Positions 4,300 to 33,230 of a DNA stretch of 64,000 nt are shown piece after piece. Source of the DNA: Gammaproteobacteria bacterium (GTDB lineage Bacteria > Pseudomonadota > Gammaproteobacteria > Ga0077536); NCBI GenBank assembly GCA_020849475.1, contig JADLGE010000023.1, positions 8,153 through 72,152 on the forward strand, read 5' to 3'. How positions within the stretch are numbered: position 1 is the first letter of the stretch; every line of letters begins with the position of its first letter. The position numbers were made by a program, and so were the translations under genes. Under the pieces are notes generated by a model. It saw only the letters and a program-made list of their open reading frames with translations, searched no databases and was not told the origin of the DNA.

Positions 4300-4599
4300 G
4301 CGCACTGCGCGTTGCGCGCGCATAACGGTAGTGCTTCACGTTTCAGCTGGCATTGCGCCAAAAACTTCGTTACGCGCGCGACGCCGCCGGCAGCACGCAG
4401 TTCATCAACGCATGCGCTTCTTTTGGTGAACACAGTCTCAGTTCATCGCGCCCAGGCGCCAGAGTGTGAATTTTTGACAGCGTCGCGTTAAGGCGCCTCC
4501 CTAGCATCGCAGCCACTCGACACCCAACCCGCGTTGCGTAGCACGCTCGCGGGCTTGGTGAACGAGCGAGGACCACGTATCAACAGGGAGTACACATCG

Positions 4600-9875: not shown

Positions 9876-11600
9876 TCAGGCTACTTGCTGCTGCGCCCAC
9901 CAGCGGCGCACCGAGGCATTGACCTCGGCGGCGTGGAAACGCGCGACCTTGTTGCTCGGTTCGAGCGCTTCTTCGTAGAAGAAAGTCGGCAGTTCGTCGT
10001 CGGCTTCGGTGAAACCCGCGGCCTTGTTGAACTCCGCTTCCATGCGCAGCGTCTGACGACCGAGGGTACGGAACCAGTCGGTGCTGAACGCCGTGCCGCA
10101 GGCCGCGTTGATGGAGTCCACCACCATCTCGACATTGGCATTCGTCACTGAGCGGCCGAACACGCACAGACCGAGGGAATCGGCGGTCGCGCACAGGGTC
10201 TGCATTTCCATGCTGACATCGACCAGCTCATCGACGTTCTTGCCGCTGCATTCGAACTTCGGTGCGTTGCCGGTGGTGTGATCGGCGCCCTGCGCGGTGA
10301 CCATCATGGAGATGCCAGTCACTTCAATCACGCGCGGATCGTAGGCGCTGATGCCCTGCTTCTTGATCACCGGGCAGCGCGCCACCCGGTAATGCGCACC
10401 CACAGCCGCCGTGCCCTGAGCCCACAGGCGGCCGTCGGCACTGCCCGCACGCAGTTCTTCCATCACGCGCGTCAGGAAGGCCACATCGCCGAAAGGCGCG
10501 AGGCCGGCATCGAGCAACACGCCCATCATGGCGCCGGTCTCGATGGTGTCGATGCCGAGATCGTTGGCGTGCCAGTTCAAACGCGCGAGGTCGTCCGGGT
10601 CGGTGAGGCCGCAGTTGGTGCCCATGAGGCCCAGGGTCTCGTACTCCACCGGTGAGACTATCTCTTTTCCGTCAGCGTCGGCGTAGACATTGCTGCATTC
10701 GATGAGGCAGCCCGGCATGCAGGCATGGGAGGTCTCGCCACCGCGCTCGAGATTCTGCGCGCGAATGAAATCGCCGCCCATCTTCAACACGCCGTTGGCG
10801 ATATCCACCTGTCGGCCAGACGTGAAATTGTTCACCGGCAGGCCGCCGACGTGGTTGGTGTAGTCGGCCATCATGGCCGTGCCGTAATCCTTCAGCACGT
10901 TGATGGCCTCATCGGCGCGCAGCTTGGCGCCGTAGTCCTTGATGTTGCCCAGCACCTTCTTACGATCGTGAAAGGTCGGCATGCGATCGAGATCGATGAC
11001 GATGGCCTTCAGTTTCTTCACGCCCATCACCGCGCCCACGCCACCGCGCGCGGCGAGACGCGCCGGGCGCTTGTCGGTGTCGCTCATGGAGATGCCGGCC
11101 AGCAGGCCGCCATATTCACCGACAGGCCCGCAAATCGCGACGCTGACTTTCTGTCCGTAGACCTCGTGCAGCATGGCGGCCGTTTCAAACGTGCCGCGGC
11201 CGACATAGGGCGTGCCACTGGTGAATTCCACCGTGCCGTCCTTCTTGAGATACATGACGGTCCAGTCGTCGCAGCCGCCGTAGAGCGTGAAGCCGGCGAT
11301 GGAGAGCTGGCCCATGGCGAGCCCGAAAGAACCACCGGCATTGGCTTCCTTGATGCCGCCGGTCAGGGGACTCTTGCAGCCGACGCTGGTGCGGTTGGCA
11401 TTGGACCAGTTGCTGCCGGCGAAGGGCCCGGCGGAAAAAATCAGCGGATTGTCGGTGCTGAGCGGGTCGACCGTGGCGGCGCCGAGTTCGAGCAGGGTCT
11501 TGGCGATGAAATAGCGCCCGGCGTGGGCCACCTGCTCGCCGCTGAACTGCTCCTCGCGCACGCTGCGCTGGGTCAGACTGATGTGTAGGTATTTGCGCAC
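9876..11600 (-). CDS. aor: Aldehyde:ferredoxin oxidoreductase (tungsten/molybdopterin AOR family)
   Basis: 574 aa. AOR N-terminal domain (HISLTQRSVREE...GRYFIAKTLLELGA...NPLIFSAGPFAGSN...TSVGCKSPLTGG) and AOR C-terminal segments (EYETLGLMGTNCGLTDPDDLARLNWHANDLGIDTIETG). Confidence 0.85.
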   Translation of the reverse strand: MRKYLHISLTQRSVREEQFSGEQVAHAGRYFIAKTLLELGAATVDPLSTDNPLIFSAGPFAGSNWSNANRTSVGCKSPLTGGIKEANAGGSFGLAMGQLSIAGFTLYGGCDDWTVMYLKKDGTVEFTSGTPYVGRGTFETAAMLHEVYGQKVSVAICGPVGEYGGLLAGISMSDTDKRPARLAARGGVGAVMGVKKLKAIVIDLDRMPTFHDRKKVLGNIKDYGAKLRADEAINVLKDYGTAMMADYTNHVGGLPVNNFTSGRQVDIANGVLKMGGDFIRAQNLERGGETSHACMPGCLIECSNVYADADGKEIVSPVEYETLGLMGTNCGLTDPDDLARLNWHANDLGIDTIETGAMMGVLLDAGLAPFGDVAFLTRVMEELRAGSADGRLWAQGTAAVGAHYRVARCPVIKKQGISAYDPRVIEVTGISMMVTAQGADHTTGNAPKFECSGKNVDELVDVSMEMQTLCATADSLGLCVFGRSVTNANVEMVVDSINAACGTAFSTDWFRTLGRQTLRMEAEFNKAAGFTEADDELPTFFYEEALEPSNKVARFHAAEVNASVRRWWAQQQVA

Positions 11601-14511: not shown

Positions 14512-15966
14512 TCAAGGCGCGACCTGGTCGGTCGCGCGACTGGCCGAAGCGGGCGCGCCGGCAAGGCGGCGGGCGGCTTCGGGGTCATGGATGCGAAACA
14601 CGTAGGGTGAACGGGCCTCGGCCCGCACACTGCCAAAGCGCCCGAGTTCGGCGCCGAAGCGCGCGATACGGGCATTCAGTTCGGGCACGGTCACGCCCGG
14701 GAATCGATGCGCATGGTAGGCGGCACTGTTGCGGTGGTTGGGCCTCATGCCGTTGATGCGCTTGACCAGAGTGCGGATGTTACCGGTCAGCCACGCGCGG
14801 AGCCAGGGTAAGGGCGCTGGCCGTCGCGGCGCCTGCTCGGCGTAGCCATTGGCCAGCAGCACGTCCATGACGCGATCACAGGCCAGCGCGCCATGGGTGG
14901 CGGCGAGGTGACGGTCGAACAGACGCTCACGGGTGGCGGCGTCGACCAGGCCGCGGCGACCGTCGAGAATTTCACCGAGCATGGCGCGCACCTCGTCCTG
15001 GCTGGCCGCGCAGTGGCTCAGACCATTCGGCAGGTGATAGTCGAAAGTCTCGGACCTGACCGGCATGTAGCTCACGGCCGGAGTGTCGAGCACGCTCGCT
15101 TCGACCGCCGTCGTGCAGCCGTTATGCAGCAGCACCTTGGCCGCCATCAGCCATGGCACCACGTTGCCGTGATGGGCGACCTCGACCGCCGGGCACGCGG
15201 CAAGGATGTCGCGCCACACGTCATGGTTTTCCGAGGGATGCGGGCGCAGCACGATGCGCTGGCCGGGAAACCAGCCGGCGAGACGTGGCAAAAGATCGCG
15301 GAAATGATCGTAAATCGCCTGTTGATGGGCGGCCATGCCGCGCGCGAACTCGAGACTCATGCCGCGCCCGGTGCGACTCACCTGCGCCTGCCCGTGGCCG
15401 TCGCGTTCGATGAGATTGAGCGCCGGCACGAAGTTGTTCACGAACGAAAAATTGGTGTTGACCAGGATGAAGTCGCCATAGCGCGCTTTCAGCGCCGCTA
15501 CTTCCTCGGCGAAATAGCCGCGCACTTCGGGGCGCAATTGATCGATGCGCGGGTTGCCGGTCACATGCACCGGCACGCCGTTGTAGCCTTCATAGCTCTT
15601 GAAGAACTCGGCGTCGTCCTCACCCCATGCGAACAGCCGGTCGATGACCTTGAAGGTCTCTTCCGAATAGCGCCACGCGTAGTACTCAGGCGAGGTGTAG
15701 CGCACCAGGCTCTCTTCATCCCAGGCCACGATGTCGTGGCCGAGACCGCGGATGAGATTGAGCATGAGTTTGCTCAAAGACCGCATGCTCTTGGCCAGGA
15801 ACAGGCCGCGCGGCAGATAGGGCATGGCGAAGTTGATGTAAGTGCGCGAGCCGATGATGACCGGCAGGCCGCGTTCGGCCGCCACGCACGCCAGCAGCAG
15901 CTTGGCGTCCATTTCACGCACCTGGTTCTCGACCGGAATGATGAGCGTGGACGGGCTGGCCGTCAT
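14512..15966 (-). CDS. Putative CMP-sugar-dependent glycosyltransferase (HP-motif, sialyl-/Kdo-transferase-like surface carbohydrate biosynthesis protein)
   Basis: 484-aa ORF immediately upstream of, and co-directional with, neuB/neuA (stop 20 nt before the neuB SD). Contains a His-Pro motif (RIVLRPHPSENHD) of the kind used by GT-B sialyl/Kdo transferases to bind the CMP phosphate. CDS call is confident; function is inferred. Confidence 0.5.
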   Translation of the reverse strand: MTASPSTLIIPVENQVREMDAKLLLACVAAERGLPVIIGSRTYINFAMPYLPRGLFLAKSMRSLSKLMLNLIRGLGHDIVAWDEESLVRYTSPEYYAWRYSEETFKVIDRLFAWGEDDAEFFKSYEGYNGVPVHVTGNPRIDQLRPEVRGYFAEEVAALKARYGDFILVNTNFSFVNNFVPALNLIERDGHGQAQVSRTGRGMSLEFARGMAAHQQAIYDHFRDLLPRLAGWFPGQRIVLRPHPSENHDVWRDILAACPAVEVAHHGNVVPWLMAAKVLLHNGCTTAVEASVLDTPAVSYMPVRSETFDYHLPNGLSHCAASQDEVRAMLGEILDGRRGLVDAATRERLFDRHLAATHGALACDRVMDVLLANGYAEQAPRRPAPLPWLRAWLTGNIRTLVKRINGMRPNHRNSAAYHAHRFPGVTVPELNARIARFGAELGRFGSVRAEARSPYVFRIHDPEAARRLAGAPASASRATDQVAP

Positions 15967-20548: not shown

Positions 20549-22894
20549 TCACACCGCGATGCGCTGCATCTCCCCCGTCGCCCGGTGCAAATCCTCGAAC
20601 AGCTCCGCGAGTGGCACCGGCTTGCCGATGCCATAGCCCTGCAGGTAATCGATGCCCAAGCGCGTCAGCACTTCGGCCTGCTGTGGCCCTTCGACGAATT
20701 CGGCGACGGTGGTCTTGTCCATGATGCGCGCGACCTCGGCAATCGAGCGCACCATCGCTTCGTCGAGTCGGTCGAGGGCGATGTTGCGCACGAAGATGCC
20801 ATCTATCTTGACCACGTCCACCGGCAAAGCTTTCAAGTAGGCAAACGACGACAGGCCGCTGCCGAAATCATCCAGCGCGAAACGGAAGCCGAGCTGCTTG
20901 AGACCGTTGATGAAGGACTGCGCGGTGTTGATGCTGGCGATGGCAGCGGTCTCGGTGATCTCGAAACAGAACTTCGCGGGCGGCAGATGATGCTTGCAAA
21001 ACTGCTGTTCGATGAAGCTCTGCAACTCCTGGTCTGCGAGTGACTGGCCGGAAATGTTGATGGAGCACGATTCAATCAAGGCCAGGCAATCGCGATGGGC
21101 GGCGAACCATTCGCAGGCGTGACGAATCACCCAGCGGTCGATACGCGGCGCGAGGCCGAAGCGCTCGGCCGCCGGCAGGAACAGGCCGGGCGAGATCATC
21201 GCGCCACGGTCGTCACGCATGCGCACCAGGATCTCGAGATGCGTCGACGGCGCCTCGGGGCGGCTGCGGGTGGCGCGTATCGGCTGCGCGTGCAGTTCGA
21301 AGCGGTCGTTTTCAAGCGCGCGGTTGATGACCGCCACCGAATCGACCTGCTGGCGATGGCGATTCAACTCGGCGTCGTCGGGGTCGAACTGGTAGACGCG
21401 CCCGCGGCCCATTTCCTTGGCCGCGTAGCACGCGGCATCGGCCGCCTTCATCACGCTCGCGGCGCTGGAATCAGGCGACAGCAGCGCCACCAGGCCGATG
21501 CTCACGCCGGCGTTGAAGAACTTGTCTTCCCAGGCGAAGCGATGCGCTTCGATGGCCTTGCACAGCTTGTCGGCGATGGCGCTGGCCTGGGCGCGCGTGC
21601 AGTGCTCGAGCAGGATCGCAAACTCATCACCGCCGAGTCGCGCCACCGCGTCGTGTTTGCGCACATGTTCGCGCAACAGCGCCGCGACCTCGCGCAGCAT
21701 GGCATCGCCCGCTTCATGGCCGCAGGCGTCATTGATGACCTTGAAGCTGTCGAGATCGAGATACAGCACCGCGTGCTGGGTGCTGTCGATGCGTATCGAC
21801 TCCAGCGCGCGCTTCAAGCGGGTTTCAAATTCGTGGCGATTCAGAAGCTCGGTCAGTTCATCGTGGGTTGCCTGGTAGGCCAAGCGGTCGGCCATGATGC
21901 GCGTGGTGGTGACGTCCTGAATCTGTACGATGGCGCGCACCCCGCCCTCGGTCGAACGCGGAATCGGCGAACCCGACACCATCACCCACAGCGGCGCGCC
22001 GTGGCTCGATGACTGGCGAGTCTCCAGGCAGAACTCGGTGATGCGTCCATCCAGCAAGGCGCTGAAGCGCTCCATCAGGCGCGCGCTGTCGACCGCGTCG
22101 GCGAGCGCCCAGAACGGCCGGTTTTTCCAATAGTCGGCGCCGGTCGCGTAGATGCCTTCGGTGACGCGGTTGGCGTGCACCACCGCGCCGTCGGCGTCGA
22201 TGAGCAGCATGCCGATGGGGGCGTTGTGGAACGCACTGGCGAAACGCGCCTCGGTCTGCTGCAGCGCCGAGGCCAGCTCCGCGGAACGATTGAAATGCCG
22301 GCTGTAATGGCGACCGGCGGACAACAGTGCCACACCGAACAACACCGCCATCAGTGCCAGCGTGCGAAACGCCGCGTTGTCATGCAGGGCGCACCACAAG
22401 GTCACGGGGATCAGCATCAAAGGTACGTACAGCCGGTAGCTGTTCAGCACCGGCGACAGATGCACGATGCCGCCGGCGCACAGGCCGGCCAGCACCAGGA
22501 TGGCGAGAAACTGATGTTCGAACGGCACGCCCGTCATCAACAGCAGTACGCCGATGCCCCAGGTCAGCCCGGTCAAGGCCACCAGCGCGCTGAACTGCTG
22601 CTCGGCCTGCGTCACCGGCAGGCGACTGGGGCCGGCCAGATAGCGCGCGCGCTGCTGCATGCGCAGCAGGCACAAGGCGCCGAGCCCGAGATACCAGCCG
22701 CCGAGCACGCCGTGATTGCCATAGGGCCACCACAGGCACAGCAGCAAGGTCGCGAGCGCGAGGTTACAGATGAATCCGAGCTGCGCCTGTTGGTGCACAT
22801 AGCCCAGGCGCAATTCACGCAAAGAGGTCTGCGCGGCGTCGCTGGGCACGTATTCAAGGGCCTGCGATGGATGGGTGGCGGCGGCCGAAAGCAT
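20549..22894 (-). CDS. Membrane-anchored sensory diguanylate cyclase/phosphodiesterase (multi-TM N-terminus, PAS, GGDEF, EAL)
   Basis: About 8 hydrophobic helices at the N-terminus, a PAS region, GGDEF motif RLGGDEFAIL, and EAL-domain motifs (CFEITETAAI, ALDDFGSGLSSFAYLK). Start is uncertain: Met-53 of the track ORF is used here. Confidence 0.8.
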   Translation of the reverse strand: MLSAAATHPSQALEYVPSDAAQTSLRELRLGYVHQQAQLGFICNLALATLLLCLWWPYGNHGVLGGWYLGLGALCLLRMQQRARYLAGPSRLPVTQAEQQFSALVALTGLTWGIGVLLLMTGVPFEHQFLAILVLAGLCAGGIVHLSPVLNSYRLYVPLMLIPVTLWCALHDNAAFRTLALMAVLFGVALLSAGRHYSRHFNRSAELASALQQTEARFASAFHNAPIGMLLIDADGAVVHANRVTEGIYATGADYWKNRPFWALADAVDSARLMERFSALLDGRITEFCLETRQSSSHGAPLWVMVSGSPIPRSTEGGVRAIVQIQDVTTTRIMADRLAYQATHDELTELLNRHEFETRLKRALESIRIDSTQHAVLYLDLDSFKVINDACGHEAGDAMLREVAALLREHVRKHDAVARLGGDEFAILLEHCTRAQASAIADKLCKAIEAHRFAWEDKFFNAGVSIGLVALLSPDSSAASVMKAADAACYAAKEMGRGRVYQFDPDDAELNRHRQQVDSVAVINRALENDRFELHAQPIRATRSRPEAPSTHLEILVRMRDDRGAMISPGLFLPAAERFGLAPRIDRWVIRHACEWFAAHRDCLALIESCSINISGQSLADQELQSFIEQQFCKHHLPPAKFCFEITETAAIASINTAQSFINGLKQLGFRFALDDFGSGLSSFAYLKALPVDVVKIDGIFVRNIALDRLDEAMVRSIAEVARIMDKTTVAEFVEGPQQAEVLTRLGIDYLQGYGIGKPVPLAELFEDLHRATGEMQRIAV

Positions 22895-23263
22895 AGTCGT
22901 GAAGTCCGTCAGGCTGCGCCAAGGCGCAAGGTTCGAGTTCGTGGGCATGGGGACGAGGCTTGCGCGACACCGCGCAGGGGCGGCCTCATGACGGCTGCGC
23001 GGAGGATGGGGCGCGGCACAATCAAGCGCAGGGGCAGGCGCACATGCCAAGCGCGCGCAGCGGTCATGTCACCGCTACCGGCAGTCCAGGCACGCAAACG
23101 CCGCTGAGACATAAGCCCTCCGATCGGGCGCCGTCACTGTCTCGCGTCCACGGTGGATCTGCGCTCCGCGGCGACTGACGCTCAGGGGTTAGCGACCCGA
23201 GGCTGGCATGCCTTTAATTTCGCGCGCGACACAGCATCGCGAATGGCCACGTTACAATGGCCC

Positions 23264-24361
23264 ATGACCCGAATTCTCGCTCACTACCATATTGGCGGCG
23301 TGGCCGCCGACATCGAGGCGCGCGCCGCCGCCCTCGCCCTGGAACAAAGCATCGAGATGCCGCTGACAGCGGTCGCCAGCCGCTACGTGCGCGATGAAGT
23401 GGTGGCGCGCGTCGCGAACATCCGCGCGCTCGGCCCCGCGCTGCACGAAGTGACGCTCGCTATCGCGACGGCCACCGTCGGGCGTGACATCGGCCAACTC
23501 ATGAACATGCTGTTCGGCAACTGTTCGCTGCAGGACGATGTGGTGCTGCACGATGTTGAACTGCCCGCGACCCTGCTCAGCCACTGGCGCGGACCGCGTC
23601 ACGGCCTCGCCGGCCTGCGCACACTGGTGGGCGCCGGTCCGCGCGCCTTGACCATGACGGCGCTGAAACCCCAGGGCCTGCCGGCCACCGAACTCGCGCA
23701 GCTGGCGGCCACCTTCGCCGACGCCGGCATCGACATCATCAAGGATGACCACGGCATCGCCGACCAGGACTATGCGCCGTTCGCGGCGCGGGTGGTGGCC
23801 TGCCAGCAGGCCGTGGCACGCGCCAACGCCGCCCGCGGCGGCCACAGCGTCTACGCCCCGACCCTGTCCGGCGGCCCGCGCCAGCTCGCCGCCCAGGCGC
23901 ATATCGTGCGCGAGGAAGGCGTGCGCATGGTGCTGGCCTGTCCTTTGCTGATGGGCCTGCCGGTGTTCGATGAACTGCTACGCCACGAACTCGATTGCGC
24001 GGTGCTGGCGCACCCGGCCCTGGGCGGCGCCGCGCGCATCGCGCCGCCGCTGCTGTTCGGCAAGCTGTTCCGCATGCTCGGCGCCGATGCCACGGTGTTT
24101 CCGAATCACGGCGGACGCTTCAGCTACAGCCCCGCGACCTGCCAGGCACTGGCGCAGGCCGCGCTCGCGCCCTGGCACGATTACGCACCCTGCGCGCCGG
24201 TGCCGGCCGGCGGCATGAGTGTCGAGCGCGTCGCCGAGATGCTGGACTTCTACGGTCGCGACGTCATTCTTCTCATCGGCGGCGCGCTGCTGGCGGCCGG
24301 CGACGCGCTGCCGGCGCGCGCGCGCGAATTCGTCAGCCGCGTCCACGCCGCCACGCTTTGA
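23264..24361 (+). CDS. RuBisCO-like protein (form IV RLP, RuBisCO large-subunit family)
   Basis: Start refined to MTRILAHYH. RuBisCO large-chain active-site region conserved as DIIKDDHGIADQDY (KDDH in place of KDDE) and KPQGL in place of KPKLGL. About 365 aa, too short for a bona fide RuBisCO. No small subunit or cbb genes nearby. Confidence 0.85.
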   Translation: MTRILAHYHIGGVAADIEARAAALALEQSIEMPLTAVASRYVRDEVVARVANIRALGPALHEVTLAIATATVGRDIGQLMNMLFGNCSLQDDVVLHDVELPATLLSHWRGPRHGLAGLRTLVGAGPRALTMTALKPQGLPATELAQLAATFADAGIDIIKDDHGIADQDYAPFAARVVACQQAVARANAARGGHSVYAPTLSGGPRQLAAQAHIVREEGVRMVLACPLLMGLPVFDELLRHELDCAVLAHPALGGAARIAPPLLFGKLFRMLGADATVFPNHGGRFSYSPATCQALAQAALAPWHDYAPCAPVPAGGMSVERVAEMLDFYGRDVILLIGGALLAAGDALPARAREFVSRVHAATL

Positions 24362-24378
24362 ACAGAGAGCGCAATCCC

Positions 24379-24828
24379 ATGAGCAACGACACCCATCGCC
24401 GCCACGACGGCGAGTTTCATTGGCAGGACGTCGAGGTGCTGGCCTACAAGCAGAGCGGCGAGGCGCCCTTCAAGGACGTCACCCGCCAGGTATTGTTCGA
24501 AGACCCGGATCTCGGCTGCCAGTGGCGCTATTTCGAAGTCGCGCCGGGCGGCCACACCACGCTCGAACGTCACCAGCACGTGCACGCCGTGATGGTGGTG
24601 CGCGGCCATGGTCGCGCGCTGGTCGGCGCGCACATCCATGAGCTGGCGAATCACGACCTGGTGAAAGTCCCAGCCCTGACCTGGCACCAGTTCCGCGCCC
24701 CGGACGACCAGCCGCTGGGGTTCCTGTGCCTGGTGAATGCTGAACGCGATCGCCCGCAGTTGCCGCAGGCGGAGGATCTGGAGGAGCTGCGGGCAGACGC
24801 GGCGACGGCGGAGTTCATCCGGGTCTGA
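24379..24828 (+). CDS. Cupin-domain protein
   Basis: 149-aa ORF 17 nt after the RLP stop (start MSNDTHRR, AGAGAG upstream). His-rich cupin metal motif GGHTTLERHQHVHAVMVVRGHG plus a second motif HIHELANHD. Confidence 0.7.
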   Translation: MSNDTHRRHDGEFHWQDVEVLAYKQSGEAPFKDVTRQVLFEDPDLGCQWRYFEVAPGGHTTLERHQHVHAVMVVRGHGRALVGAHIHELANHDLVKVPALTWHQFRAPDDQPLGFLCLVNAERDRPQLPQAEDLEELRADAATAEFIRV

Positions 24829-24871
24829 CATCCGGTGTCACAACAGGAATGTCAGACTGAAGTCTGACTTT
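24822..24871. repeat. Family B hairpin element (opposite orientation, nested)
   Basis: GTCTGACA ... AATGTCAGAC-TGAA-GTCTGACTTT directly after the cupin stop. Confidence 0.7.
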
Positions 24872-25005
24872 CGAGGCAAATGACAACGCTGCATCGGGCT
24901 CGCAATAAAGCCCTTGTGTAGACCGGCCACCGCCCCCCGTCACCGCTATTGCCGCCCCCTGCCCCACGGGCTATGTTCGCCGCTCGCAAGATCGGGGGGA
25001 GAGTC

Positions 25006-26838
25006 ATGGTCGCGCACCGCTATTGGAAGTTTTTCGCGCTGCTGGTTGCGGTGTTGGGCGGGCTGCCCGCATTCGCCGCTGGCGACGGCAAGGATGATTT
25101 GAGCCCCATCGCCGACAGCGAATGGGACCGCGCCCACGCCGCGCATCTGCTCGAACGCGCAGGCTTCGGCGGCACGCCGGCGGAAATCGACAAGCTTGCA
25201 CACATGACGCCGCGCCAGGCGGTGCGTTACCTGGTCTATTTCGAAGGTGTGGATGCCAAGGCCATCGAGGGCCAGGCCGCGTTCGATGAATCCGGCATCT
25301 TCGAGCCGGGGCTCGATCCTTTTCCGCCCAGCCGCCCAGCCACCACCGAACTCGCCAAGGCCAAGGGCGAGGCCTTGGGCGTCAAGGTCAAGGCCAGCGG
25401 CAACCGTCCCTACCAGCCGGTGGTCGACAAATTCTTCTACTGGTTACGCGCCAGTCGTCTCGAAACCGACCGCGTCGCCTACTGGTGGGCGAACCGCATG
25501 GTGTCGTCGCCGACGCCGCTGAAAGAAAAGATGGCGGTGTTCTGGCACGGCCATTTCACCAGTAGCGAAGAGAAGGTGCGTGACTACCGCAAGATGCTGC
25601 GCCAGCTCACGCTGTTCCAGGACCAGGGCCTCGGCAACTTCCGCACCCTGCTCATCGGCGCCGCGCAGGACCCGGCCATGCTCACCTACCTCGATGCCGG
25701 CGTGAACGTGAAAGGCGCGCCCAACGAAAACTTCGCCCGCGAGATCATGGAAATGTTCACCATGGGCGTCGGCAACTACAGCGAGCACGACATCCGCGAA
25801 GCGGCGCGCGCCTTCACCGGCTGGTACTACAGCGGTCTGGAATTCAAGATCGATGCCGCCAAGCACGACGACGGCGAAAAGGAATTCCTGGGCGCCAAGG
25901 GCAACTTTGACGGCATTCAGGTTATCGACCACATCCTCGCGCAAGACGCCACCAGTCAATACATCGCCGCAAGACTCTACCGTTACCTGGTGCGCGACGA
26001 GCTTTCGCCGACACTGAAAGCCGCGCTCGCCGCACGCCTGAAGACCGGCAATTACGACATCGCCGCGTACCTCGAGACGCTGTTCCTGTCTCACGACTTC
26101 TACAGCCCCGCGTCGGTCGCGACGCGCATCAAGAGCCCGGTGGAACTCGTGATCTCGACCTATCACAAGCTCGGTCTCGTGACCGTGCCGGGCGCGCCGG
26201 ACTTCAACCTCCTGACCGAGTCACTCGGCCAGCGCCTCATGCATCCGCCGACCGTCGCCGGCTGGAGCTATGGCCGCAGCTGGGTGACGCCGAGTCTCTT
26301 GATCGAACGCGGCAACTTCGCGCTCGACGTGATGTTCCCCGACATCGAGTTCATTGCCGCCGATCGCTACCCGGTCTATCCCACCGGCGACGAAATTCGC
26401 CAGGTGCACGAGCGCATACGCGCCGGCCTCGACATGACCGCCGCCACCGCGCCGGTCGCCAAGGACGGGGGCCGCGACATGATGGCAATGTCCAACCAGG
26501 TCGAGCACGCCGAGGAATTCAACACCCGCTATGCCAGCTATCGCGGCTGGCAGATGGCGATTGAACGCGTCAAGCCGATACCGCGCGATGCACCGCGCGT
26601 GGAGTTGACGCGCATGGTGATGAGCAATGAACTCGCGACGCCGGCGGCGGTGGTCGATTACTTCATCGCGCGCTTCCTGTCGGTGCCACTCGACGTCGCT
26701 ACCCGCCAGAAACTGATCGCGAGCTTCACCACCGAACTCGGCACCAGCGACGTGCTGGCGGCGGCGAGCTACATGGAAGATCCCCTGCGCTTGCTGCTGC
26801 ATTTATTGCTGAGCCGCCCCGAGTACCAGTTAGGTTGA
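25006..26838 (+). CDS. DUF1800 family protein (secreted)
   Basis: Start refined to MVAHRYWKFFALLVAVLGGLPAFAAG (signal peptide; GGGGGAGAG SD upstream). About 610 aa, typical DUF1800 size. Paired with the downstream DUF1501 gene. Confidence 0.75.
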   Translation: MVAHRYWKFFALLVAVLGGLPAFAAGDGKDDLSPIADSEWDRAHAAHLLERAGFGGTPAEIDKLAHMTPRQAVRYLVYFEGVDAKAIEGQAAFDESGIFEPGLDPFPPSRPATTELAKAKGEALGVKVKASGNRPYQPVVDKFFYWLRASRLETDRVAYWWANRMVSSPTPLKEKMAVFWHGHFTSSEEKVRDYRKMLRQLTLFQDQGLGNFRTLLIGAAQDPAMLTYLDAGVNVKGAPNENFAREIMEMFTMGVGNYSEHDIREAARAFTGWYYSGLEFKIDAAKHDDGEKEFLGAKGNFDGIQVIDHILAQDATSQYIAARLYRYLVRDELSPTLKAALAARLKTGNYDIAAYLETLFLSHDFYSPASVATRIKSPVELVISTYHKLGLVTVPGAPDFNLLTESLGQRLMHPPTVAGWSYGRSWVTPSLLIERGNFALDVMFPDIEFIAADRYPVYPTGDEIRQVHERIRAGLDMTAATAPVAKDGGRDMMAMSNQVEHAEEFNTRYASYRGWQMAIERVKPIPRDAPRVELTRMVMSNELATPAAVVDYFIARFLSVPLDVATRQKLIASFTTELGTSDVLAAASYMEDPLRLLLHLLLSRPEYQLG

Positions 26839-26849
26839 GCAAGGACATC

Positions 26850-28055
26850 ATGATGAACCGTCGCCAACTCCTCGCCCGTCTTGCCGCCCTCGGCGGTGGC
26901 CGACTGGTGGCCGGCGCCGTGCCGGGCATTTTTCAGCAGGCGCTGGCCGCCGACGGCGCGGCCAACGAGCGCATCCTGGTGGTGTTTGAAATGTCGGGCG
27001 GTAACGATGGATTGACCACCATCGTGCCCTACGCCGACGACACCTATTACAAGCTGCGCCCGCGTATCGCCATCAAAAAAGACAAACTCCTGAAGCTCGA
27101 CGACCACTTCGGCTTCAACCCTGGCATGCTCGGCATGCAGCGCCTGTGGCAGGACGGCAAGCTCGCCATCGTGCACGGCGCGGGCTATGCGCAACCGTCG
27201 TTCTCGCACTTCACCTCGATGGCTTACTGGCACACCGCCGCGCCCAATTCCGGCGATGAGTACGGCTGGTGCGGACGTCTGGCCGATACCCTGGCGCCGC
27301 AGCCGGTGCCGAATTTCCTGGTCAATGTCGACACCACCCAGAGCCTCGCGGTGCGCAGCCGCGTGCATACGCCAGTGGTGTTCGACGAGCCGGAGCGATT
27401 TACGCGCCTCGGCATGAAACAGGAACGCGAGGTGCTCGACTATGTATCGAGTTCGGCGGGTGGCAATGCGAGTCTCGAGTATCTCAACCAGGTGGCGCAC
27501 AGCGCCGATGAAGCCTCGCAGCTGGTGCGCGATGCATGGGCGAAATACAAGACGCCGATAGACTACGGCATTCTGCCGGCACAACTGCCCAAGGTTGCGG
27601 CCTGCATCGCCGCCGGCCTGCCGGCGCGCATCTACTACCTCGCGTTTCGTAACAACGCCTTCGACACCCACGTGCAACAGCCCGATCTGCATCAGCGCCT
27701 GTTGAGCTACATGGCCGACGCCATCCATGGCTTTCAACGCGACCTTGAGCGTCTCGGCGTCGCCGAGCGCGTCAGCACCATGATCTTTTCCGAGTTCGGT
27801 CGGCGCGCGCCGGAGAACACCAACGGCGGCACCGATCACGGCGCGGCCAACAATATGTTCATGGTCGGCAGCAAAGTGCGTGGCGGGCATTACGGTCAGC
27901 CGGTCAGCCTCACCACGCTCGATGAAGGCGACAACCTCATCTACACCACCGACTTTCGGCGCGTGTACGCGACCGCCATCGACAACTGGCTGCAGCCCGG
28001 CACGGCCAAGGCGGTACTCAAGGGTGAATTCGAGACCTTGCCGATCTTCGGCTGA
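26850..28055 (+). CDS. DUF1501 family protein (sulfatase/alkaline-phosphatase-like fold) with twin-arginine signal
   Basis: Tat motif NRRQLLARLAALGGG. The stop of the DUF1800 gene overlaps the start region. Conserved DUF1501 segments include MSGGNDGLTTIVPY and NGGTDHG. Confidence 0.8.
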   Translation: MMNRRQLLARLAALGGGRLVAGAVPGIFQQALAADGAANERILVVFEMSGGNDGLTTIVPYADDTYYKLRPRIAIKKDKLLKLDDHFGFNPGMLGMQRLWQDGKLAIVHGAGYAQPSFSHFTSMAYWHTAAPNSGDEYGWCGRLADTLAPQPVPNFLVNVDTTQSLAVRSRVHTPVVFDEPERFTRLGMKQEREVLDYVSSSAGGNASLEYLNQVAHSADEASQLVRDAWAKYKTPIDYGILPAQLPKVAACIAAGLPARIYYLAFRNNAFDTHVQQPDLHQRLLSYMADAIHGFQRDLERLGVAERVSTMIFSEFGRRAPENTNGGTDHGAANNMFMVGSKVRGGHYGQPVSLTTLDEGDNLIYTTDFRRVYATAIDNWLQPGTAKAVLKGEFETLPIFG

Positions 28056-28573: not shown

Positions 28574-29080
28574 ATGGATTCCGAATCATTGAAAGCGCTG
28601 CAGGCGCCGCTGAAAGATCAATACCGCAGCCAGCCTGACGCCGCGCTCATCACCCTGTCGGCCGAATCGAACGGCGTCGACGGCATCGCCTGCAAACTCG
28701 CCACCAGCAAGGGCATGGTCGAAGCCGGCCTGCATCCCGCCACCGGCGGTCCCGGCACCCAGGCCTGCTCCGGCGACATGCTGCTCGAAGCCTTGGCCGC
28801 CTGCGCCGGCGTGACCTTGCAGGCGGTCGCCACCGCTTTCGGCGTCAAGCTCAGCCGGTCGACGGTGCGCGCCGAAGGCGACCTCGATTTCCGCGGCACC
28901 TTAGGTGTGGCCAAGGACGCGCCGGTCGGCTTTCGCGACATCCGTCTCGTGTTCGACATCGCCGGCGACGCGCCGGAAGAAACCCTCAAGAAAATCGTCG
29001 CCACCAGCGAACGCTACTGCGTGGTGCTGCAAACCATTCAACAGCGTCCCAACATCACCATTGAAGCGCACGTCGCTTGA
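28574..29080 (+). CDS. OsmC/Ohr family peroxiredoxin
   Basis: 168 aa. OsmC-like conserved Cys pair (GTQACSGDMLLEALAACAG ... ERYCVV). Confidence 0.8.
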   Translation: MDSESLKALQAPLKDQYRSQPDAALITLSAESNGVDGIACKLATSKGMVEAGLHPATGGPGTQACSGDMLLEALAACAGVTLQAVATAFGVKLSRSTVRAEGDLDFRGTLGVAKDAPVGFRDIRLVFDIAGDAPEETLKKIVATSERYCVVLQTIQQRPNITIEAHVA

Positions 29081-29090
29081 GGAAACGCCC

Positions 29091-29687
29091 ATGGCCGCCA
29101 ATCCCCATACGCTCGAAGTTGCACGCCCGAATTTCAAATCGCTGTCGACCAGCAGCGCCGCAGACTGGCAGGTGATTTGCGACGAGCACCGGCAATTTTT
29201 CGCCGGTTTGCCAGACCGTATCCTGGGCCATCTCAAGCTGCTGGATGCCGATTACGGCGGCTTCCCGGTCGACCGCCTGCAGCATTCGATGCAGACCGCC
29301 GAACTCGCCGCCGCCGATGGCCGCGATGACGAATACGTGGTGTGCGCGCTCCTGCACGACATCGGTGACACGCTCGGCTCAGCCAACCACCCCGATGTGG
29401 CGGCGGCCATCCTCTACCCCTACGTGTCGGAGGCCAACCACTGGATGGTGAAACACCACGGTATCTTCCAGGGCTATAACTTCTTCCATCACTTAGGCAT
29501 GGATCGCAACATGCGTGACCAATTTCGCGGCACGCATTACTACGATCAGACCGAAGAATTCATCGCCAGGTACGATGACCCGGCCTTCGATGCCGACAAG
29601 CCCAGGCTTGAGCTGGCGCTGTTTGAACCGATGGTGCGCAAGGTGTTCGCGCAGCCGGTGAATACGATTTATAAGACTTTGCGCTGA
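29091..29687 (+). CDS. HD-domain metal-dependent phosphohydrolase/oxygenase-like protein
   Basis: Start refined to MAANPHTLEV, 10 nt after the OsmC stop. HD signature QHSMQTAELAA...LLHDIGDT, plus further His ligands HPDVAAA and HH. Confidence 0.7.
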   Translation: MAANPHTLEVARPNFKSLSTSSAADWQVICDEHRQFFAGLPDRILGHLKLLDADYGGFPVDRLQHSMQTAELAAADGRDDEYVVCALLHDIGDTLGSANHPDVAAAILYPYVSEANHWMVKHHGIFQGYNFFHHLGMDRNMRDQFRGTHYYDQTEEFIARYDDPAFDADKPRLELALFEPMVRKVFAQPVNTIYKTLR

Positions 29688-29696
29688 GGCCGGGCT

Positions 29697-29724
29697 TTAA
29701 TGTGCGAATTCATTCGCACACTGG
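29697..29724. repeat. Family A element, solo hairpin unit
   Basis: TTAATGTGCGAATTCATTCGCACACTGG between convergent gene ends. Confidence 0.75.
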
Positions 29725-29737
29725 CCTTGCATGTTCA

Positions 29738-31105
29738 CTACCAGCCGCGCCGCGTCTTCGCCGCCGGATGCGGTAACTGCGCGCGCGCCGGCCGGCCGGC
29801 GAACAATTTCTCGCGCAGACTGCCTGGCTGATATTCCTTCTGCATGCGGCCGCGCTTCTGCAGCACCGGCACCACGCCGTCGATGAAATCCTCGAAGCTG
29901 CCGGGCAAGGTCGCGTAGGCGAGATTGAATCCGTCGACGCCGGCCGCTATCCATTCTTCCAGTTGATCCGCAATCTGCTCTGGTGCACCGACCAGCACCG
30001 GGCCGGCGCCGCCGATGCCGACATAGTTGGCGATGTCGCGCATGGTCCACATGCGATTCGGATCGGCATGGGTGAAGCTGTGCAGGAAGGTGCGTATTGC
30101 ATTGGTCTCAATGTATTCGACCGGCATGTCCGGCTCGTACTTGCTTAGATCAATACCGCTCCAGCCGCATAGCAGCGCCAGCGCACCCTCATAGCTCACC
30201 TGGCTGTAGAACTCTTCGTATTTGGCACGCGCCTCGGCTTCGGTGCTGCCGGTGATGACCTTCATGTAGGCAAAGCACAGCACGTCTTCGGCGCGCCTGC
30301 CGAAATTCTGCGCCTTGCTCTTGATGGCGTGCGCGTATTCGCCGGCGACCTTGGGGCTGGAACCGATCACGAACACACATTCGCTGTGCTCAGCGGCGAA
30401 ATCAGTGCCGCGCGGCGAGGTGCCGGCCTGGAACAACACCGGCGTGCGCTGCGGCGAAGGCTCGGAAATATGCGGGCCGTTGACCTTGTAGTACTTGCCG
30501 TCGTGCACGACATCGCGCACGCGACTGGGGTCGGTATAGATGCCGCGCCGCTTGTCGGCCAGCACTGCGTCGTCGGCCCACGAGTCCTCCCACAGCTGGT
30601 AGCACACGCGGCAATACTCATCGGCCATCGCGTATCGCACGTCGTGATCCGGCAGGCCCTTGAGCCCGTAGCTGCGGCCGGTGCTTTCGAGATAGGACGT
30701 GACGATATTCCATGCCACACGTCCCTGGGTCAGGTGGTCAAGCGTGGTGATGAAGCGCGCGAACGTGAACGGATGGTGTTGCAGGATGGAACTGGTGAAG
30801 CCGAAACCGAGATGCTCGGTGACCGCCGCCATGGCCGGAATCAGGAGCATGGGGTCGTTGACCGGCGTCTGCGCGGCATTGCGCAGGGCCGCGTCGCGAT
30901 TGGCGCCGTACACGTCGTAGACACTCAGCACGTCCGCCAGGAAGATGGCATCGAAGCAGCCGCGCTCGATGAGCTTGGCGAAGTTCATCCAATGGTCGAG
31001 CCGCTTGTAATCGACCATATGATCGTCGTTGCGCGTCCACAGTCCGGGGGACTGGTGCACTACGCAGTTCATCTGGAAAGCATTGAAGTAGATGCGCTTG
31101 GACAT
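29738..31105 (-). CDS. LLM-class flavin-dependent monooxygenase (NtaA/SnaA/DszA family)
   Basis: 455 aa. Family-typical N-terminus MSKRIYFNAFQMNCVVHQSPGLW and overall length. Confidence 0.85.
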   Translation of the reverse strand: MSKRIYFNAFQMNCVVHQSPGLWTRNDDHMVDYKRLDHWMNFAKLIERGCFDAIFLADVLSVYDVYGANRDAALRNAAQTPVNDPMLLIPAMAAVTEHLGFGFTSSILQHHPFTFARFITTLDHLTQGRVAWNIVTSYLESTGRSYGLKGLPDHDVRYAMADEYCRVCYQLWEDSWADDAVLADKRRGIYTDPSRVRDVVHDGKYYKVNGPHISEPSPQRTPVLFQAGTSPRGTDFAAEHSECVFVIGSSPKVAGEYAHAIKSKAQNFGRRAEDVLCFAYMKVITGSTEAEARAKYEEFYSQVSYEGALALLCGWSGIDLSKYEPDMPVEYIETNAIRTFLHSFTHADPNRMWTMRDIANYVGIGGAGPVLVGAPEQIADQLEEWIAAGVDGFNLAYATLPGSFEDFIDGVVPVLQKRGRMQKEYQPGSLREKLFAGRPARAQLPHPAAKTRRGW

Positions 31106-31163
31106 GGAAGGCTCCTGGGCAGCGAAGGCGCCCGGCGGTGGAGTTGCACCTTGGGCGCGTTCT

Positions 31164-31195
31164 GTTGAATGTGCGATTTCAATCGCACATTCAAC
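31164..31195. repeat. Family A element, solo hairpin unit (TTCA-loop variant)
   Basis: GTTGAATGTGCGATTTCAATCGCACATTCAAC. 14-bp arms around TTCA. Same internal variant as the U arm at 16974. Confidence 0.75.
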
Positions 31196-31207
31196 CTCAA
31201 GGCAAGC

Positions 31208-32314
31208 TCACGCCGCCCGTATATCCAACATGCCGGGCTCCGCCATCGGCGTGGTCTGCCACTTGTGCAATTCCGGCAGCACATACTCGGCAAAACAGCG
31301 CACGTTGCGTTCCGCCTCTTCATGCGGCATGCCGGCATAGCTCAGATTGCACAGCACCGCATTGGGATTGATGATCTCGCGGATGTAGGCAATCTTCTCC
31401 AGCACCTGTTTGGGCGTGCCCCACGGCATGAGATCGGTGAAGTCCTTGGCCGCGCCATCCATGCCGTGCCGCGAGATGTACTTGCCGACGTTGCGGTAGA
31501 ACTCGTAGCCCTTGTGCTGGCCGAATTTCTCTGCAGTCATTTCGTAATGCTTCATGGCACTGTGGTAGTAGGCGTTGATGTACTTGTAGGCCATGTCCTC
31601 GGCGCGCGCGGCGTCCTTGTCGACGAAGAAGAAGCCACCGCACAAGGGTTGCGGCGGCGCACAGCCGTTCACTTTCTGATAGGTCTCGGTGTAAATCGCA
31701 AAATCCTGCTTGACCACATCCCACGGCTTTTGCGGGATCACCAAGAGGCCGACGCCGAGCCTGGCCATGATCGGCATCGACTCCGGCGACACCGCCGCCG
31801 CATAGGAGCGACCGCGGAACGAGCGCAACGGAAAGGGACGAATGTCGCGGCGCGGCTGCTTGGTGTGCGCACCGCCTTCGAGGTAGCCGCGTTCCAAGCC
31901 TTCGAGCAGCAGTTCGGCGTATTCGACGAAGCGCTCACGCCCCTCGCCCTGGTCGATGCGGAAACCGGAATATTCAACATTGCCGAGGCCGCGCCCCAGG
32001 CCCAGGATCATGCGGCCGCCGGACAAATGATCGAGCATCGAGATCTGCTCGGCGACGCGCATCGGGTCATGCCAGGGCAACACAATCACGCTGGAGCCCA
32101 ATTTGACCTTGCTGGTCTTGCCGGCCATGTAGGTCAGGAACTGCACCACGTCCGGGCACATGGTGTAGTCAGTGAAATGATGTTCGATGCCCCACACGGA
32201 ATCGAAGCCCAGCGGCTCGGCCATTTCCGCCAAGCGCACTTCTTCCCGATAGACATCGGCATCCGAGCGCAGATTGCCGGGATTCTGGAAAATCGGCGTA
32301 TATCCCACGTGCAT
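31208..32314 (-). CDS. LLM-class flavin-dependent oxidoreductase
   Basis: Start refined to MHVGYTPIF (AGGGGAAC upstream). Luciferase-like monooxygenase segments such as DSVWGIEHHF and MILGLGRG. The 5' two-fifths of the 587-aa track ORF (N-terminal extension upstream of this start) is a non-coding read-through. Confidence 0.8.
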   Translation of the reverse strand: MHVGYTPIFQNPGNLRSDADVYREEVRLAEMAEPLGFDSVWGIEHHFTDYTMCPDVVQFLTYMAGKTSKVKLGSSVIVLPWHDPMRVAEQISMLDHLSGGRMILGLGRGLGNVEYSGFRIDQGEGRERFVEYAELLLEGLERGYLEGGAHTKQPRRDIRPFPLRSFRGRSYAAAVSPESMPIMARLGVGLLVIPQKPWDVVKQDFAIYTETYQKVNGCAPPQPLCGGFFFVDKDAARAEDMAYKYINAYYHSAMKHYEMTAEKFGQHKGYEFYRNVGKYISRHGMDGAAKDFTDLMPWGTPKQVLEKIAYIREIINPNAVLCNLSYAGMPHEEAERNVRCFAEYVLPELHKWQTTPMAEPGMLDIRAA

Positions 32315-32564
32315 GTCGTTCCCCTGGTGGCGTTGAAGACCGACGAATCTAGCATGCGCTTCCAGGGCCACGGCACCACCCTTCGTGGAGGGGGTGGGCG
32401 CGGGGCCCTGTGCTAGACTCGTGGCCCATCCGCACACGGGGCCGGGCCTGATGCACTTCTTTCCAGTGCCGGCCGCGCGACCGTGGTTCAAGTCAACGAA
32501 CACATTCCCATGCCGCGCCACGGCCACGACGCGCGCTGACGTGGCTGGCTGACAGGAGCTCATC

Positions 32565-33230
32565 ATGTTGCAAGGCAAGGTTGTAGTCGTGACCGGCGCC
32601 AATGGCGCACTCGGACGCGCGGCCGTCGCACTGGCCGCCGAACAAGGCGCCGAAGTCGTGGAACTCGATCTGCGTTTTGACGGCGCGCCCGGCGCGCGCC
32701 AGCACGCGGTCGACCTGACCGATGCCGCCGCCGCGGCGGCCTGCCTAAGCGCCATTGGTCGTATCGACGTGGTGCTGAATATCGCCGGCGGTTTCGCCAT
32801 GGGCCCGGCCGTGCACGAGACCACGCCCGAGCAATGGCTGCATATGACGCGCATGAATGTCGACACCGCGCGCAATGTAATGACCGCCGTGGTGCCCGGC
32901 ATGTTGGCGCGGGGTCGCGGCAGCATCGTCAATGTGGGCGCGCTGTCGGCGCGCGAGGGCCAGGCCAACATGAGCGCCTACTGCGTGGCCAAGAGCACGG
33001 TCATGCGCTTGACCGAGAGTCTGTCCAAGGAGCTGCGCGCCAAGGGCATCAACGTCAACGCGGTGTTGCCGAGCATCATCGACACGCCGACCAACCGCAA
33101 AGATATGCCCGACGCCGATCACAGCCGTTGGGTGGCGCCGCGCGATCTGGCGGCCGCGATGTGTTTCTTAGGCTCCGACGCGGCGCGCGCCATTCACGGC
33201 GTGCTGCTGCCGGTCGCGGGCCTCGCCTGA
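32565..33230 (+). CDS. Short-chain dehydrogenase/reductase (SDR)
   Basis: 221 aa. GKVVVVTGANGALG Rossmann motif and a catalytic YxxxK context (SAYCVAK). Confidence 0.85.
   Translation: MLQGKVVVVTGANGALGRAAVALAAEQGAEVVELDLRFDGAPGARQHAVDLTDAAAAAACLSAIGRIDVVLNIAGGFAMGPAVHETTPEQWLHMTRMNVDTARNVMTAVVPGMLARGRGSIVNVGALSAREGQANMSAYCVAKSTVMRLTESLSKELRAKGINVNAVLPSIIDTPTNRKDMPDADHSRWVAPRDLAAAMCFLGSDAARAIHGVLLPVAGLA

Follow-up and report, generated by a model that had tools for sequence, protein, structure and literature searches.

A two-gene locus in an uncultured gammaproteobacterium in all likelihood encodes the module of RuBisCO-like protein (RLP) and cupin that belongs to the known MTA-isoprenoid shunt, as in R. 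rubrum and R. palustris. Both proteins show orthology-level similarity to characterised enzymes, both keep all the invariant residues of their families, and the adjacency of their genes is conserved. They are 52-63% identical to the characterised enzymes, which is short of near-identity. The initial annotation had taken the pairing as a pointer to MTA or sulfur salvage, a reading borne out by the match of both proteins to shunt enzymes.

The window, meaning the whole 64-kb stretch of DNA that was analysed, carries the RLP gene at 23264-24361 on the + strand (ATG 23264 to TGA 24361, 365 aa) and the cupin gene at 24379-24828 on the same strand (ATG 24379 to TGA 24828, 149 aa). They are separated by a 17-nt spacer (24362-24378, + strand) with a purine-rich, Shine-Dalgarno-like AGAGAG stretch, in agreement with the RLP length and the spacing first annotated. 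GenBank names the RLP (MCC6707221.1) "ribulose 1,5-bisphosphate carboxylase" and its partner "cupin domain-containing protein". The RLP start at 23264 is supported because close homologues begin with the same MTRIL... N-terminus. Longer forms from ATG 23243 or GTG 23153 were ruled out, as the homologues start at the Met equivalent to that of MTRIL. The upstream neighbour, described earlier as a c-di-GMP sensor, is a divergent PAS-GGDEF-EAL gene (20549-23050, - strand), and DUF1800 and DUF1501 genes lie downstream of the cupin (both by Pfam scan). The host, an uncultured MAG, goes by "Gammaproteobacteria bacterium", and its nearest relatives bear gamma- or betaproteobacterial labels.

The RLP and cupin genes are very probably co-transcribed. 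No terminator was found between them, strong or otherwise, and the junction folds no better than shuffled sequence (z -0.81). A terminator-like site at 24396-24413 lies inside the cupin ORF, in a region that folds no better than shuffles, and was put down to chance. A possible weak terminator of the two-gene operon is located at 24851..24868 on the + strand, where a 7-bp hairpin (GUCAGAC-UGAA-GUCUGAC) starts 23 nt past the cupin stop and is followed by UUU. Although the pattern scan reported the palindrome for the - strand, its stem also forms on the + strand, in both the minimum-free-energy and the centroid folds (z -1.5), and termination there is only suggested because the U-tract is short. 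The intergenic region at 23051..23263 (+ strand), shared with the divergent PAS-GGDEF-EAL gene, is the presumed promoter region of the operon; a pattern scan of it returned no sigma-70 consensus site. The region upstream of the RLP showed no SAM or methionine regulatory element, and Rfam gave no riboswitch or leader RNA match at gathering thresholds in the whole window and only chance-level matches at E<=1 in 22900-25100.

Placed by the hierarchy of PDB bit scores and by an NJ tree rooted on MtnW, the RLP is a form IV protein of the DeepYkr clade and no carboxylase. It aligns over its full length with PDB 3QFW from R. palustris (372 bits, E 2.8e-110), at 51.7% identity over 358 aa without gaps. 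The 3QFW sequence is a 100% match to an R. palustris protein, and identity to the CGA009-type R. palustris RLP1 is 52%, again with no gaps. All YkrW/MtnW, Photo, form I/II and form III structures score at most 110 bits: MtnW <=110, form III 84, the Photo clade and Burkholderia 3NWR 65-74, and forms I and II <=52. In the tree, the RLP and 3QFW fall inside one family from which MtnW is set off by a long branch. On the grouping with form I-III RuBisCO that the initial annotation asked about, the bit scores place the protein with DeepYkr instead. The earlier description of the protein as form IV and unable to fix CO2 holds; its description as too short does not, since 359-393 aa is the normal length range of this clade. 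The RLP is predicted to function as a 5-methylthioribulose-1-phosphate 1,3-isomerase, and one member of its family is named "S-methyl-5-thioribulose 1-phosphate isomerase" by IMG.

Residue conservation was computed over 85 RLPs and 74 cupins, with family-invariant residues defined as those kept in >=95%. Residue roles in both proteins were taken from alignment to MtnW and RuBisCO, together with the mechanism literature. The RLP keeps every family-invariant residue: N86, K135-P136, G138, K160-D161-D162-H163, H250-P251 and R285. Eight of these (N86, K135, P136, G138, K160, D161, D162 and H163) occur in 85/85 RLPs, 3QFW included, while H250 and P251 are kept in 84/85 and Q137 in 80/85, all three being present here. 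The motifs singled out at the start, KPQGL (aa 135-139) and DIIKDDHGI (aa 157-165), are both in place, and the protein carries the clade-specific active-site pattern of Asn at the MtnW-Lys98 position, KPQG, KDDH and AHP. In the motif alignment to RuBisCO, for which positions follow textbook spinach numbering, the equivalents of K175, K201, D203 and H294 are retained, whereas K177, E204 and R295 are replaced by Q137, H163 and P251. The active site proposed for inspection is conserved in these four positions but not at E204. In the alignment to MtnW, Lys98 becomes Asn86 and Glu176 becomes His163. Lys98 (G. kaustophilus numbering) is said to be catalytic in the work of Imker et al. in 2007.

The cupin is a putative 1-methylthio-xylulose-5-P methylsulfurylase of the Rru_A2000 family, with orthology-level similarity to its characterised members. 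It matches Rru_A2000 of R. rubrum (PDB 3JZV, titled "uncharacterized protein Rru_A2000") with 183 bits (E 4e-53) and 57% identity over 141 ungapped aa. The match to 3KGZ, whose source organism is R. palustris (PMC3293032), reaches 192 bits (E 5e-56) at 63% identity, and the cupin adjoining the CGA009-type RLP1 is 59% identical, both without gaps. Rru_A2000 and RPA2170 are MTXu-5-P methylsulfurylases (PMC4958253, PMC5893883, PMC4334135); the R. rubrum cupin was shown to release methanethiol and DXP from MTXu-5-P in a thiol-dependent reaction (PMC4334135), and genetic evidence supports the same step in R. palustris (PMC5893883). The cupin in the window keeps every family-invariant residue: E63, H65, H67, H69, W102-H103-Q104-F105 and C117. 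Its sole Pfam match at E<=0.01 is PF07883 Cupin_2 (E 1.1e-9), and NCBIfam matches are only weak and dioxygenase-like (gentisate and aminosalicylate dioxygenases). Acireductone dioxygenase (ARD, MtnD) and DMSP-lyase cupins (DddK) have the cupin fold and sulfur metabolites in common with it; however, the ARD family profile in Pfam gave no match at E<=0.01 and DddK matched at E 0.05 only.

The closest described system is the R. palustris pair of RLP1 (RPA2169, DeepYkr) and cupin (RPA2170), which belongs to the MTA-isoprenoid shunt (Miller et al. 2018, PMC5893883). Its genes are adjacent, on one strand and in the same order as those in the window, and the proteins share 52% (RLP) and 59-63% (cupin) ungapped identity with the window pair. 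Common to both pairs are KPQG, KDDH, AHP and GGRF in the RLP and ExHxHxH/WHQF/C in the cupin. The R. palustris genes overlap, whereas the window pair has its 17-nt spacer, and R. palustris is a purple phototroph, in contrast to an uncultured MAG whose pair is known from sequence. In R. rubrum, the system that defined the isomerase and glutathione-dependent methylsulfurylase reactions (PMC4958253, PMC4334135), locus-tag numbering puts one gene between the RLP (Rru_A1998) and the cupin (Rru_A2000), which are adjacent in the window. Photo-clade RLPs (Chlorobaculum tepidum 1YKW; R. palustris RLP2, 2QYG) and Burkholderia 3NWR are members of the same superfamily. Photo-clade RLPs are linked to sulfur metabolism, and R. 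palustris RLP2 does not perform the shunt reaction in vivo (PMC5893883).

At least 577 species genomes carry a homologue of the RLP. In 70 of the 80 best, the next gene downstream, on the same strand, encodes the cupin, and the adjacency recurs in 4/4 long contigs from metagenomes or MAGs and in R. palustris; relatives join the two genes by a 4-nt overlap or similar closeness. All-against-all ORF clustering around the RLP in 84 loci gave no recurrent cluster besides RLP, cupin and the shadow ORFs antisense to them, with no recurrent mtnA, mtnP, metY, gsh or dxr. The next neighbour clusters (MacB/FtsX ABC exporter, SDR, esterase, enoyl-CoA hydratase) occur in <=11 loci and look like lineage-specific synteny. 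In two contigs, genes for metX/metW, gshA/gshB and gamma-glutamyl transpeptidase lie close to the RLP and cupin, which is suggestive but not recurrent. As first annotated, the window contains no mtn or DXP genes: Pfam found no methionine-salvage or DXP-synthase family among its ~57 ORFs, and genes for MtnP, MtnA, O-acetylhomoserine sulfhydrylase and glutathione are absent within the 64 kb. The initial annotation had concluded that the context was atypical and the substrate possibly new. That conclusion does not stand, since mtnP and mtnA are encoded elsewhere in R. rubrum and R. palustris too (PMC4958253, PMC5893883), which makes their absence from the window typical, and the cupin is the only conserved neighbour across the 80 genomes.

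We infer the catalytic activities of the pair, and the feeder and downstream enzymes elsewhere in the host genome, from the characterised systems. MTA from SAM-dependent reactions would be converted to 5-methylthioribulose-1-P (MTRu-1-P) by MtnP and MtnA, encoded away from the pair. The RLP, presumably using a RuBisCO-type metal site of K160, D162 and H163, would then catalyze 1,3-isomerisation to 1-methylthio-xylulose-5-P (MTXu-5-P) and some 1-methylthio-ribulose-5-P (MTRu-5-P). Both the R. rubrum and the R. palustris enzyme were shown to convert MTRu-1-P to MTXu-5-P and MTRu-5-P at about 3:1 (PMC5893883). With the help of a thiol (R. rubrum uses glutathione), the cupin would strip the methylthio group to give 1-deoxy-xylulose-5-P (DXP) and a methanethiol adduct. 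The former would enter isoprenoid synthesis, while O-acetylhomoserine sulfhydrylase would re-assimilate methanethiol into methionine.

An unlikely alternative is that fold and chemistry are kept while the physiological substrate is another one, for instance 5-deoxyribulose-1-P (from the radical-SAM by-product 5'-deoxyadenosine) going straight to DXP, or a further 5-thio or 5-deoxy pentulose phosphate. The lack of mtn genes linked to the pair would fit such a role, as would the 52-63% identity to characterised enzymes and a host lineage that appears non-phototrophic and lies outside those where the pathway was studied. However, every family-invariant residue is kept, and in the model organisms, too, the pair lies apart from the mtn genes. 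The RLPs of R. palustris and R. rubrum share 53% identity, and isomerase activity was demonstrated for both (PMC5893883); the RLP studied here stands at the same distance from R. palustris RLP1 as the R. rubrum protein, which argues against a different substrate. The strict coupling to a dethiomethylating cupin (the 70 of the best 80 genomes noted above) argues in turn for a methylthio sugar as the real intermediate. It is quite improbable that the module serves this particular host with another 5-substituted pentulose phosphate (e.g., 5-deoxyribulose-1-P to DXP), or mainly as a Dxs-independent supply of DXP, instead of in MTA salvage. Were another substrate or a Dxs-independent DXP source to prove true, DeepYkr RLPs would have a wider range of substrates or a wider physiological role than is known.

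A Bacillus-type pairing of MtnW enolase and ARD cupin, acting in classical oxygen-dependent methionine salvage, is very improbable and effectively refuted by the sequence tests. The classical pathway uses both protein superfamilies, and the best NCBIfam models matched by the RLP are MtnW equivalogs; however, NF007095 scores 159 bits (cut-off 409) and TIGR03332 scores 111 (cut-off 513.6). MtnW/YkrW, the 2,3-diketo-5-methylthiopentyl-1-P (DK-MTP-1-P) enolase found in Bacillus and Geobacillus (PDB 2OEK, 2ZVI), shares with the RLP the RuBisCO-like fold, a place in MTA salvage, the KPxxG lysine, the KDD metal/carbamate motif and the His264 equivalent. Yet it is ~45 aa longer, its structures score far below 3QFW, and its Lys98 and Glu176 are substituted in the RLP. 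Its partners are MtnX, MtnB and MtnD, not this cupin, which in Pfam matches Cupin_2 alone at E<=0.01 and which matches Rru_A2000; neither mtnB nor mtnX lies nearby. Of the two precedents named in the initial annotation, the R. rubrum isomerase and sulfurylase survive and Bacillus MtnW/ARD drops out.

A remnant, decaying or no longer functional, is hardly a more credible reading of the pair. Its neighbours have nothing to do with sulfur salvage, and the RLP stops 7 codons before its closest relatives, whose 7 extra residues are C-terminal. Both ORFs are nevertheless intact, with a gene-like GC3 of 0.84 for the RLP and all invariant residues retained, and proteins identical to the RLP and the cupin were recovered from 15 and 23 independent contigs, respectively. 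A bona fide CO2-fixing RuBisCO of forms I-III, as suggested by the GenBank product name and the Pfam RuBisCO_large match (E 2.2e-15), has practically no chance against equivalog scores far below cut-off (form III 95 bits versus 497; form II 36 versus 489), the low structure scores, the loss of K177, E204 and R295, and a window with no small subunit, phosphoribulokinase or cbb genes.

The value of assigning the pair to the MTA-isoprenoid shunt lies mainly in annotation, the two proteins becoming a predicted MTRu-1-P isomerase and MTXu-5-P methylsulfurylase. A naive pipeline would count the host as a CO2 fixer because GenBank names the RLP a carboxylase. Genomes with the module are labelled beta-, gamma- and alphaproteobacterial, Meiothermus, Caldilineaceae/Chloroflexi, Eremiobacterota/Vulcanimicrobiota and Acidobacteriota, so the two-gene module is spread far more widely than the purple bacteria where its function was worked out; this adds useful context and no new mechanism. 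For the host, the re-annotation predicts that sulfur is salvaged from MTA independently of oxygen, that volatile methanethiol is released and that isoprenoid synthesis has a side entry.

The RuBisCO-like protein (RLP) and the cupin lie in tandem on the forward strand of a window of about 64-65% GC. The RLP ORF runs from an ATG at 23264 to a TGA at 24361 (365 aa, with DIIKDDHGI at residues 157-165 and KPQGL at 135-139), and a 17-nt spacer containing AGAGAG (24362-24378) separates it from the His-rich cupin ORF (ATG 24379 to TGA 24828, 149 aa). These coordinates, lengths, motifs and spacer, re-read from the ORFs, are those of the initial annotation. Pfam assigns the two products to RuBisCO_large (E 2.2e-15) and Cupin_2 (E 1.1e-9), and recognizes the reported c-di-GMP-type upstream neighbor as a divergently encoded PAS-GGDEF-EAL protein; DUF1800 and then DUF1501 genes lie downstream. 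The GenBank entries from this gammaproteobacterial MAG are MCC6707221.1, named "ribulose 1,5-bisphosphate carboxylase", and MCC6707222.1, a "cupin domain-containing protein". An identical RLP is found on 16 contigs, with unchanged neighbors on the six shown.

No terminator was found between the two genes, as originally noted, and the fold of their junction resembles that of shuffled sequence (z -0.81). At 24396-24413, inside the cupin ORF, a terminator-like pattern occurs that is within chance expectation. At 24851-24868, pattern scanning and folding identify a 7-bp hairpin with UUU after it, a site that could end the transcript. The DUF1800/DUF1501 pair (24949-28055, +) adjoins the cupin gene on its 3′ side; lying past this hairpin, it probably forms a unit of its own. 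Only the closest relative, L007, shares this pair. Neither a riboswitch nor a sigma-70 consensus was found upstream of the RLP gene.

Equivalog models for MtnW, the Bacillus-type enolase RLP, score the protein at 159 and 111 bits (cut-offs 409 and 514), and RuBisCO models give 95 bits for form III (cut-off 497) and 36 for form II (cut-off 489). Because all these scores fall below their cut-offs, the RLP is neither an MtnW nor a carboxylase. Among PDB structures, 3QFW matches the RLP best by a wide margin (372 bits, E 2.8e-110), with residues 3-360 aligning gap-free to 7-364; other PDB matches are MtnW (89-110 bits), form III (84), Photo RLPs (64-74) and forms I/II (at most 52). The proposal that the protein does not fix CO2 is therefore upheld, but it is not too short, as 365 aa is usual for a clade spanning 359-393 aa. 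Used as a query, the aligned 3QFW fragment recovered a 100% identical Rhodopseudomonas palustris protein, followed by many Rhodopseudomonas and Rhodomicrobium homologs, one of them annotated in IMG as "S-methyl-5-thioribulose 1-phosphate isomerase". The CGA009-type R. palustris homolog (P0166, CP076679.1) and the window RLP share 52% identity across 358 residues without a gap; a cupin gene overlaps the 3′ end of the former, and groES/groEL lie ~2.4-4 kb upstream of it. The R. palustris and R. rubrum enzymes share 53% identity (Miller et al., PMC5893883), so the window RLP is as near to one characterized member as the two characterized members are to each other. In an MtnW-rooted neighbor-joining tree of 85 family members, 3QFW is nested inside an alphaproteobacterial subclade, and the window RLP occupies an adjoining one with its 88% and 70% relatives. 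Distances reach at most 0.59 within the family and are at least 0.68 to MtnW.

Active-site residues were mapped through an ungapped stretch of alignment to Geobacillus kaustophilus MtnW. K98, K147, K173-D174-D175, E176 and H264 of MtnW correspond to N86, K135, K160-D161-D162, H163 and H250. Against the textbook RuBisCO motifs, equivalents of K175, K201, D203 and H294 are retained, and Q, H and P stand in place of K177, E204 and R295. N86, K135, P136, G138, K160, D161, D162 and H163 are invariant in 85 family RLPs, and H250, P251 and R285 are kept in 84. KDDH and KPQGL, present as described, are therefore a signature of the clade rather than an oddity of this gene.

The best PDB matches to the cupin are 3KGZ (E 5e-56), 3JZV, "uncharacterized protein Rru_A2000" (E 4e-53), and 3IBM (E 4e-32), at 63%, 57% and 44% identity; no other match is better than E 6e-9. 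The source of 3KGZ is R. palustris and that of 3IBM is Halorhodospira halophila (PMC3293032). 3KGZ and 3JZV are 56% identical, in agreement with the published figure for the R. palustris and R. rubrum cupins (PMC5893883). Rru_A2000 and RPA2170 are 1-methylthio-xylulose-5-P (MTXu-5-P) methylsulfurylases that yield 1-deoxy-xylulose-5-P (DXP) and a glutathione-methanethiol adduct (PMC4958253; PMC4334135; PMC5893883). The window cupin has all of E63, H65, H67, H69, W102-H103-Q104-F105 and C117, which are kept in at least 95% of 74 family cupins. DddK was matched only at E 0.05. The initial annotation had offered two precedents. A Bacillus-type pairing of MtnW with acireductone dioxygenase (ARD) fails on both genes, as the MtnW equivalogs stay below cut-off and the Pfam ARD profile does not match the cupin; the R. 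rubrum-type pairing of an RLP isomerase with a cupin sulfurylase is the correct one.

Among ~57 ORFs scanned across the window there is no match to a known methionine-salvage or DXP-synthase family, as first observed. This had been read as an atypical context and a possible new substrate. Neither suggestion is supported, since the feeder genes are also unlinked in R. rubrum (Rru_A0361 and Rru_A0360, apart from Rru_A1998/Rru_A2000) and R. palustris (RPA4821 and RPA4820, apart from RPA2169/RPA2170), and their absence here is normal.

The pairing itself is widely conserved. On four long contigs, whose RLPs share 88%, 70%, 59% and 61% identity with that of the window, the cupin gene is always directly next, overlapping by 4 nt in three; all other surroundings differ, save in the 88% relative. 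At least 577 species-representative genomes carry a relative of the RLP. Among the best 80 of these, 70 have the cupin gene on the same strand, at most 222 nt after the RLP; in three it is 0.6-3.5 kb off, and in seven it was not found. Clustering of flanking ORFs revealed no other recurrent neighbor. One of the seven loci is cut by a contig end, and three to four belong to Eremiobacterota/Vulcanimicrobiota MAGs. There, DeepYkr-type RLPs (the clade of 3QFW) at loci L025, L029, L033 and L054 have no cupin homolog in the flanks covered, which reach 1.5 kb downstream in L054 and 6 kb in the others; their partner may be encoded elsewhere or absent. Related Eremiobacterota loci (L014, L038, L080) carry the cupin. 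Within 9 kb of the pair, one relative has metX-like/metW and gshA/gshB genes (L010 12446-19913), and another a gamma-glutamyl transpeptidase gene (L009 19729-21095); these fit a glutathione-dependent shunt with an O-acetylhomoserine step, though they are not conserved neighbors. Three MAG records titled "Klebsiella pneumoniae" (L011, L012, L023) encode RLPs that share 58-69% identity with the window RLP and group with gamma- or betaproteobacterial-labelled sequences, and the label looks wrong.

Elsewhere in the window, 28905-32971 encodes an HD-domain PhnZ-like oxygenase and two luciferase-like FMN monooxygenases, one of the NtaA/DmoA family (TIGR03860, 526 bits). The 88% relative, L007, lacks this inserted block and has OsmC, a small ORF and then SDR and thiolase genes. 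Luciferase-like monooxygenases also flank the pair on both sides in the 70% relative (L008). The setting may be one of organosulfur scavenging, but it is not recurrent across the best 80 of at least 577 genomes. A CheB-methylesterase fragment (54967-55485, profile positions 33-172 of 174), a PAS-PAS ORF (55491-56555) and an EAL fragment (56317-56859, positions 82-233 of 236), all on the forward strand in different frames and partly overlapping, look like the pieces of a single multidomain signaling gene that frameshifts have split; this would be a pseudogene or else an error of assembly. A tungsten-type aldehyde:ferredoxin oxidoreductase (AFOR_N and AFOR_C; 9876-11600, -) and a DUF6851 and vanadium-chloroperoxidase-like helical-bundle protein (4534-6147, +) are unrelated to the pair. 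Three ORFs with gene-like GC3 lack a Pfam match: 14512-15966 (-, 484 aa), 36801-37991 (+, 396 aa) and 8810-9811 (+, 333 aa). The first also occurs in L007, beside NeuB and cytidylyltransferase genes.

By their sequence relationships, conserved residues and gene coupling, the RLP and cupin belong to a two-gene module that is already known, that of the methylthioadenosine (MTA)-isoprenoid shunt, and are a further member of it with generic annotation. The activities of the two proteins, and a complete pathway, are predicted from these relatives. MtnP would convert MTA to MTR-1-P and MtnA would convert this to 5-methylthioribulose-1-P, both presumably encoded elsewhere in the genome. The RLP would then form MTXu-5-P, plus some MTRu-5-P, from which the cupin would produce DXP and CH3S-SG with glutathione. 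Methanethiol would be freed and returned to methionine via O-acetylhomoserine sulfhydrylase.
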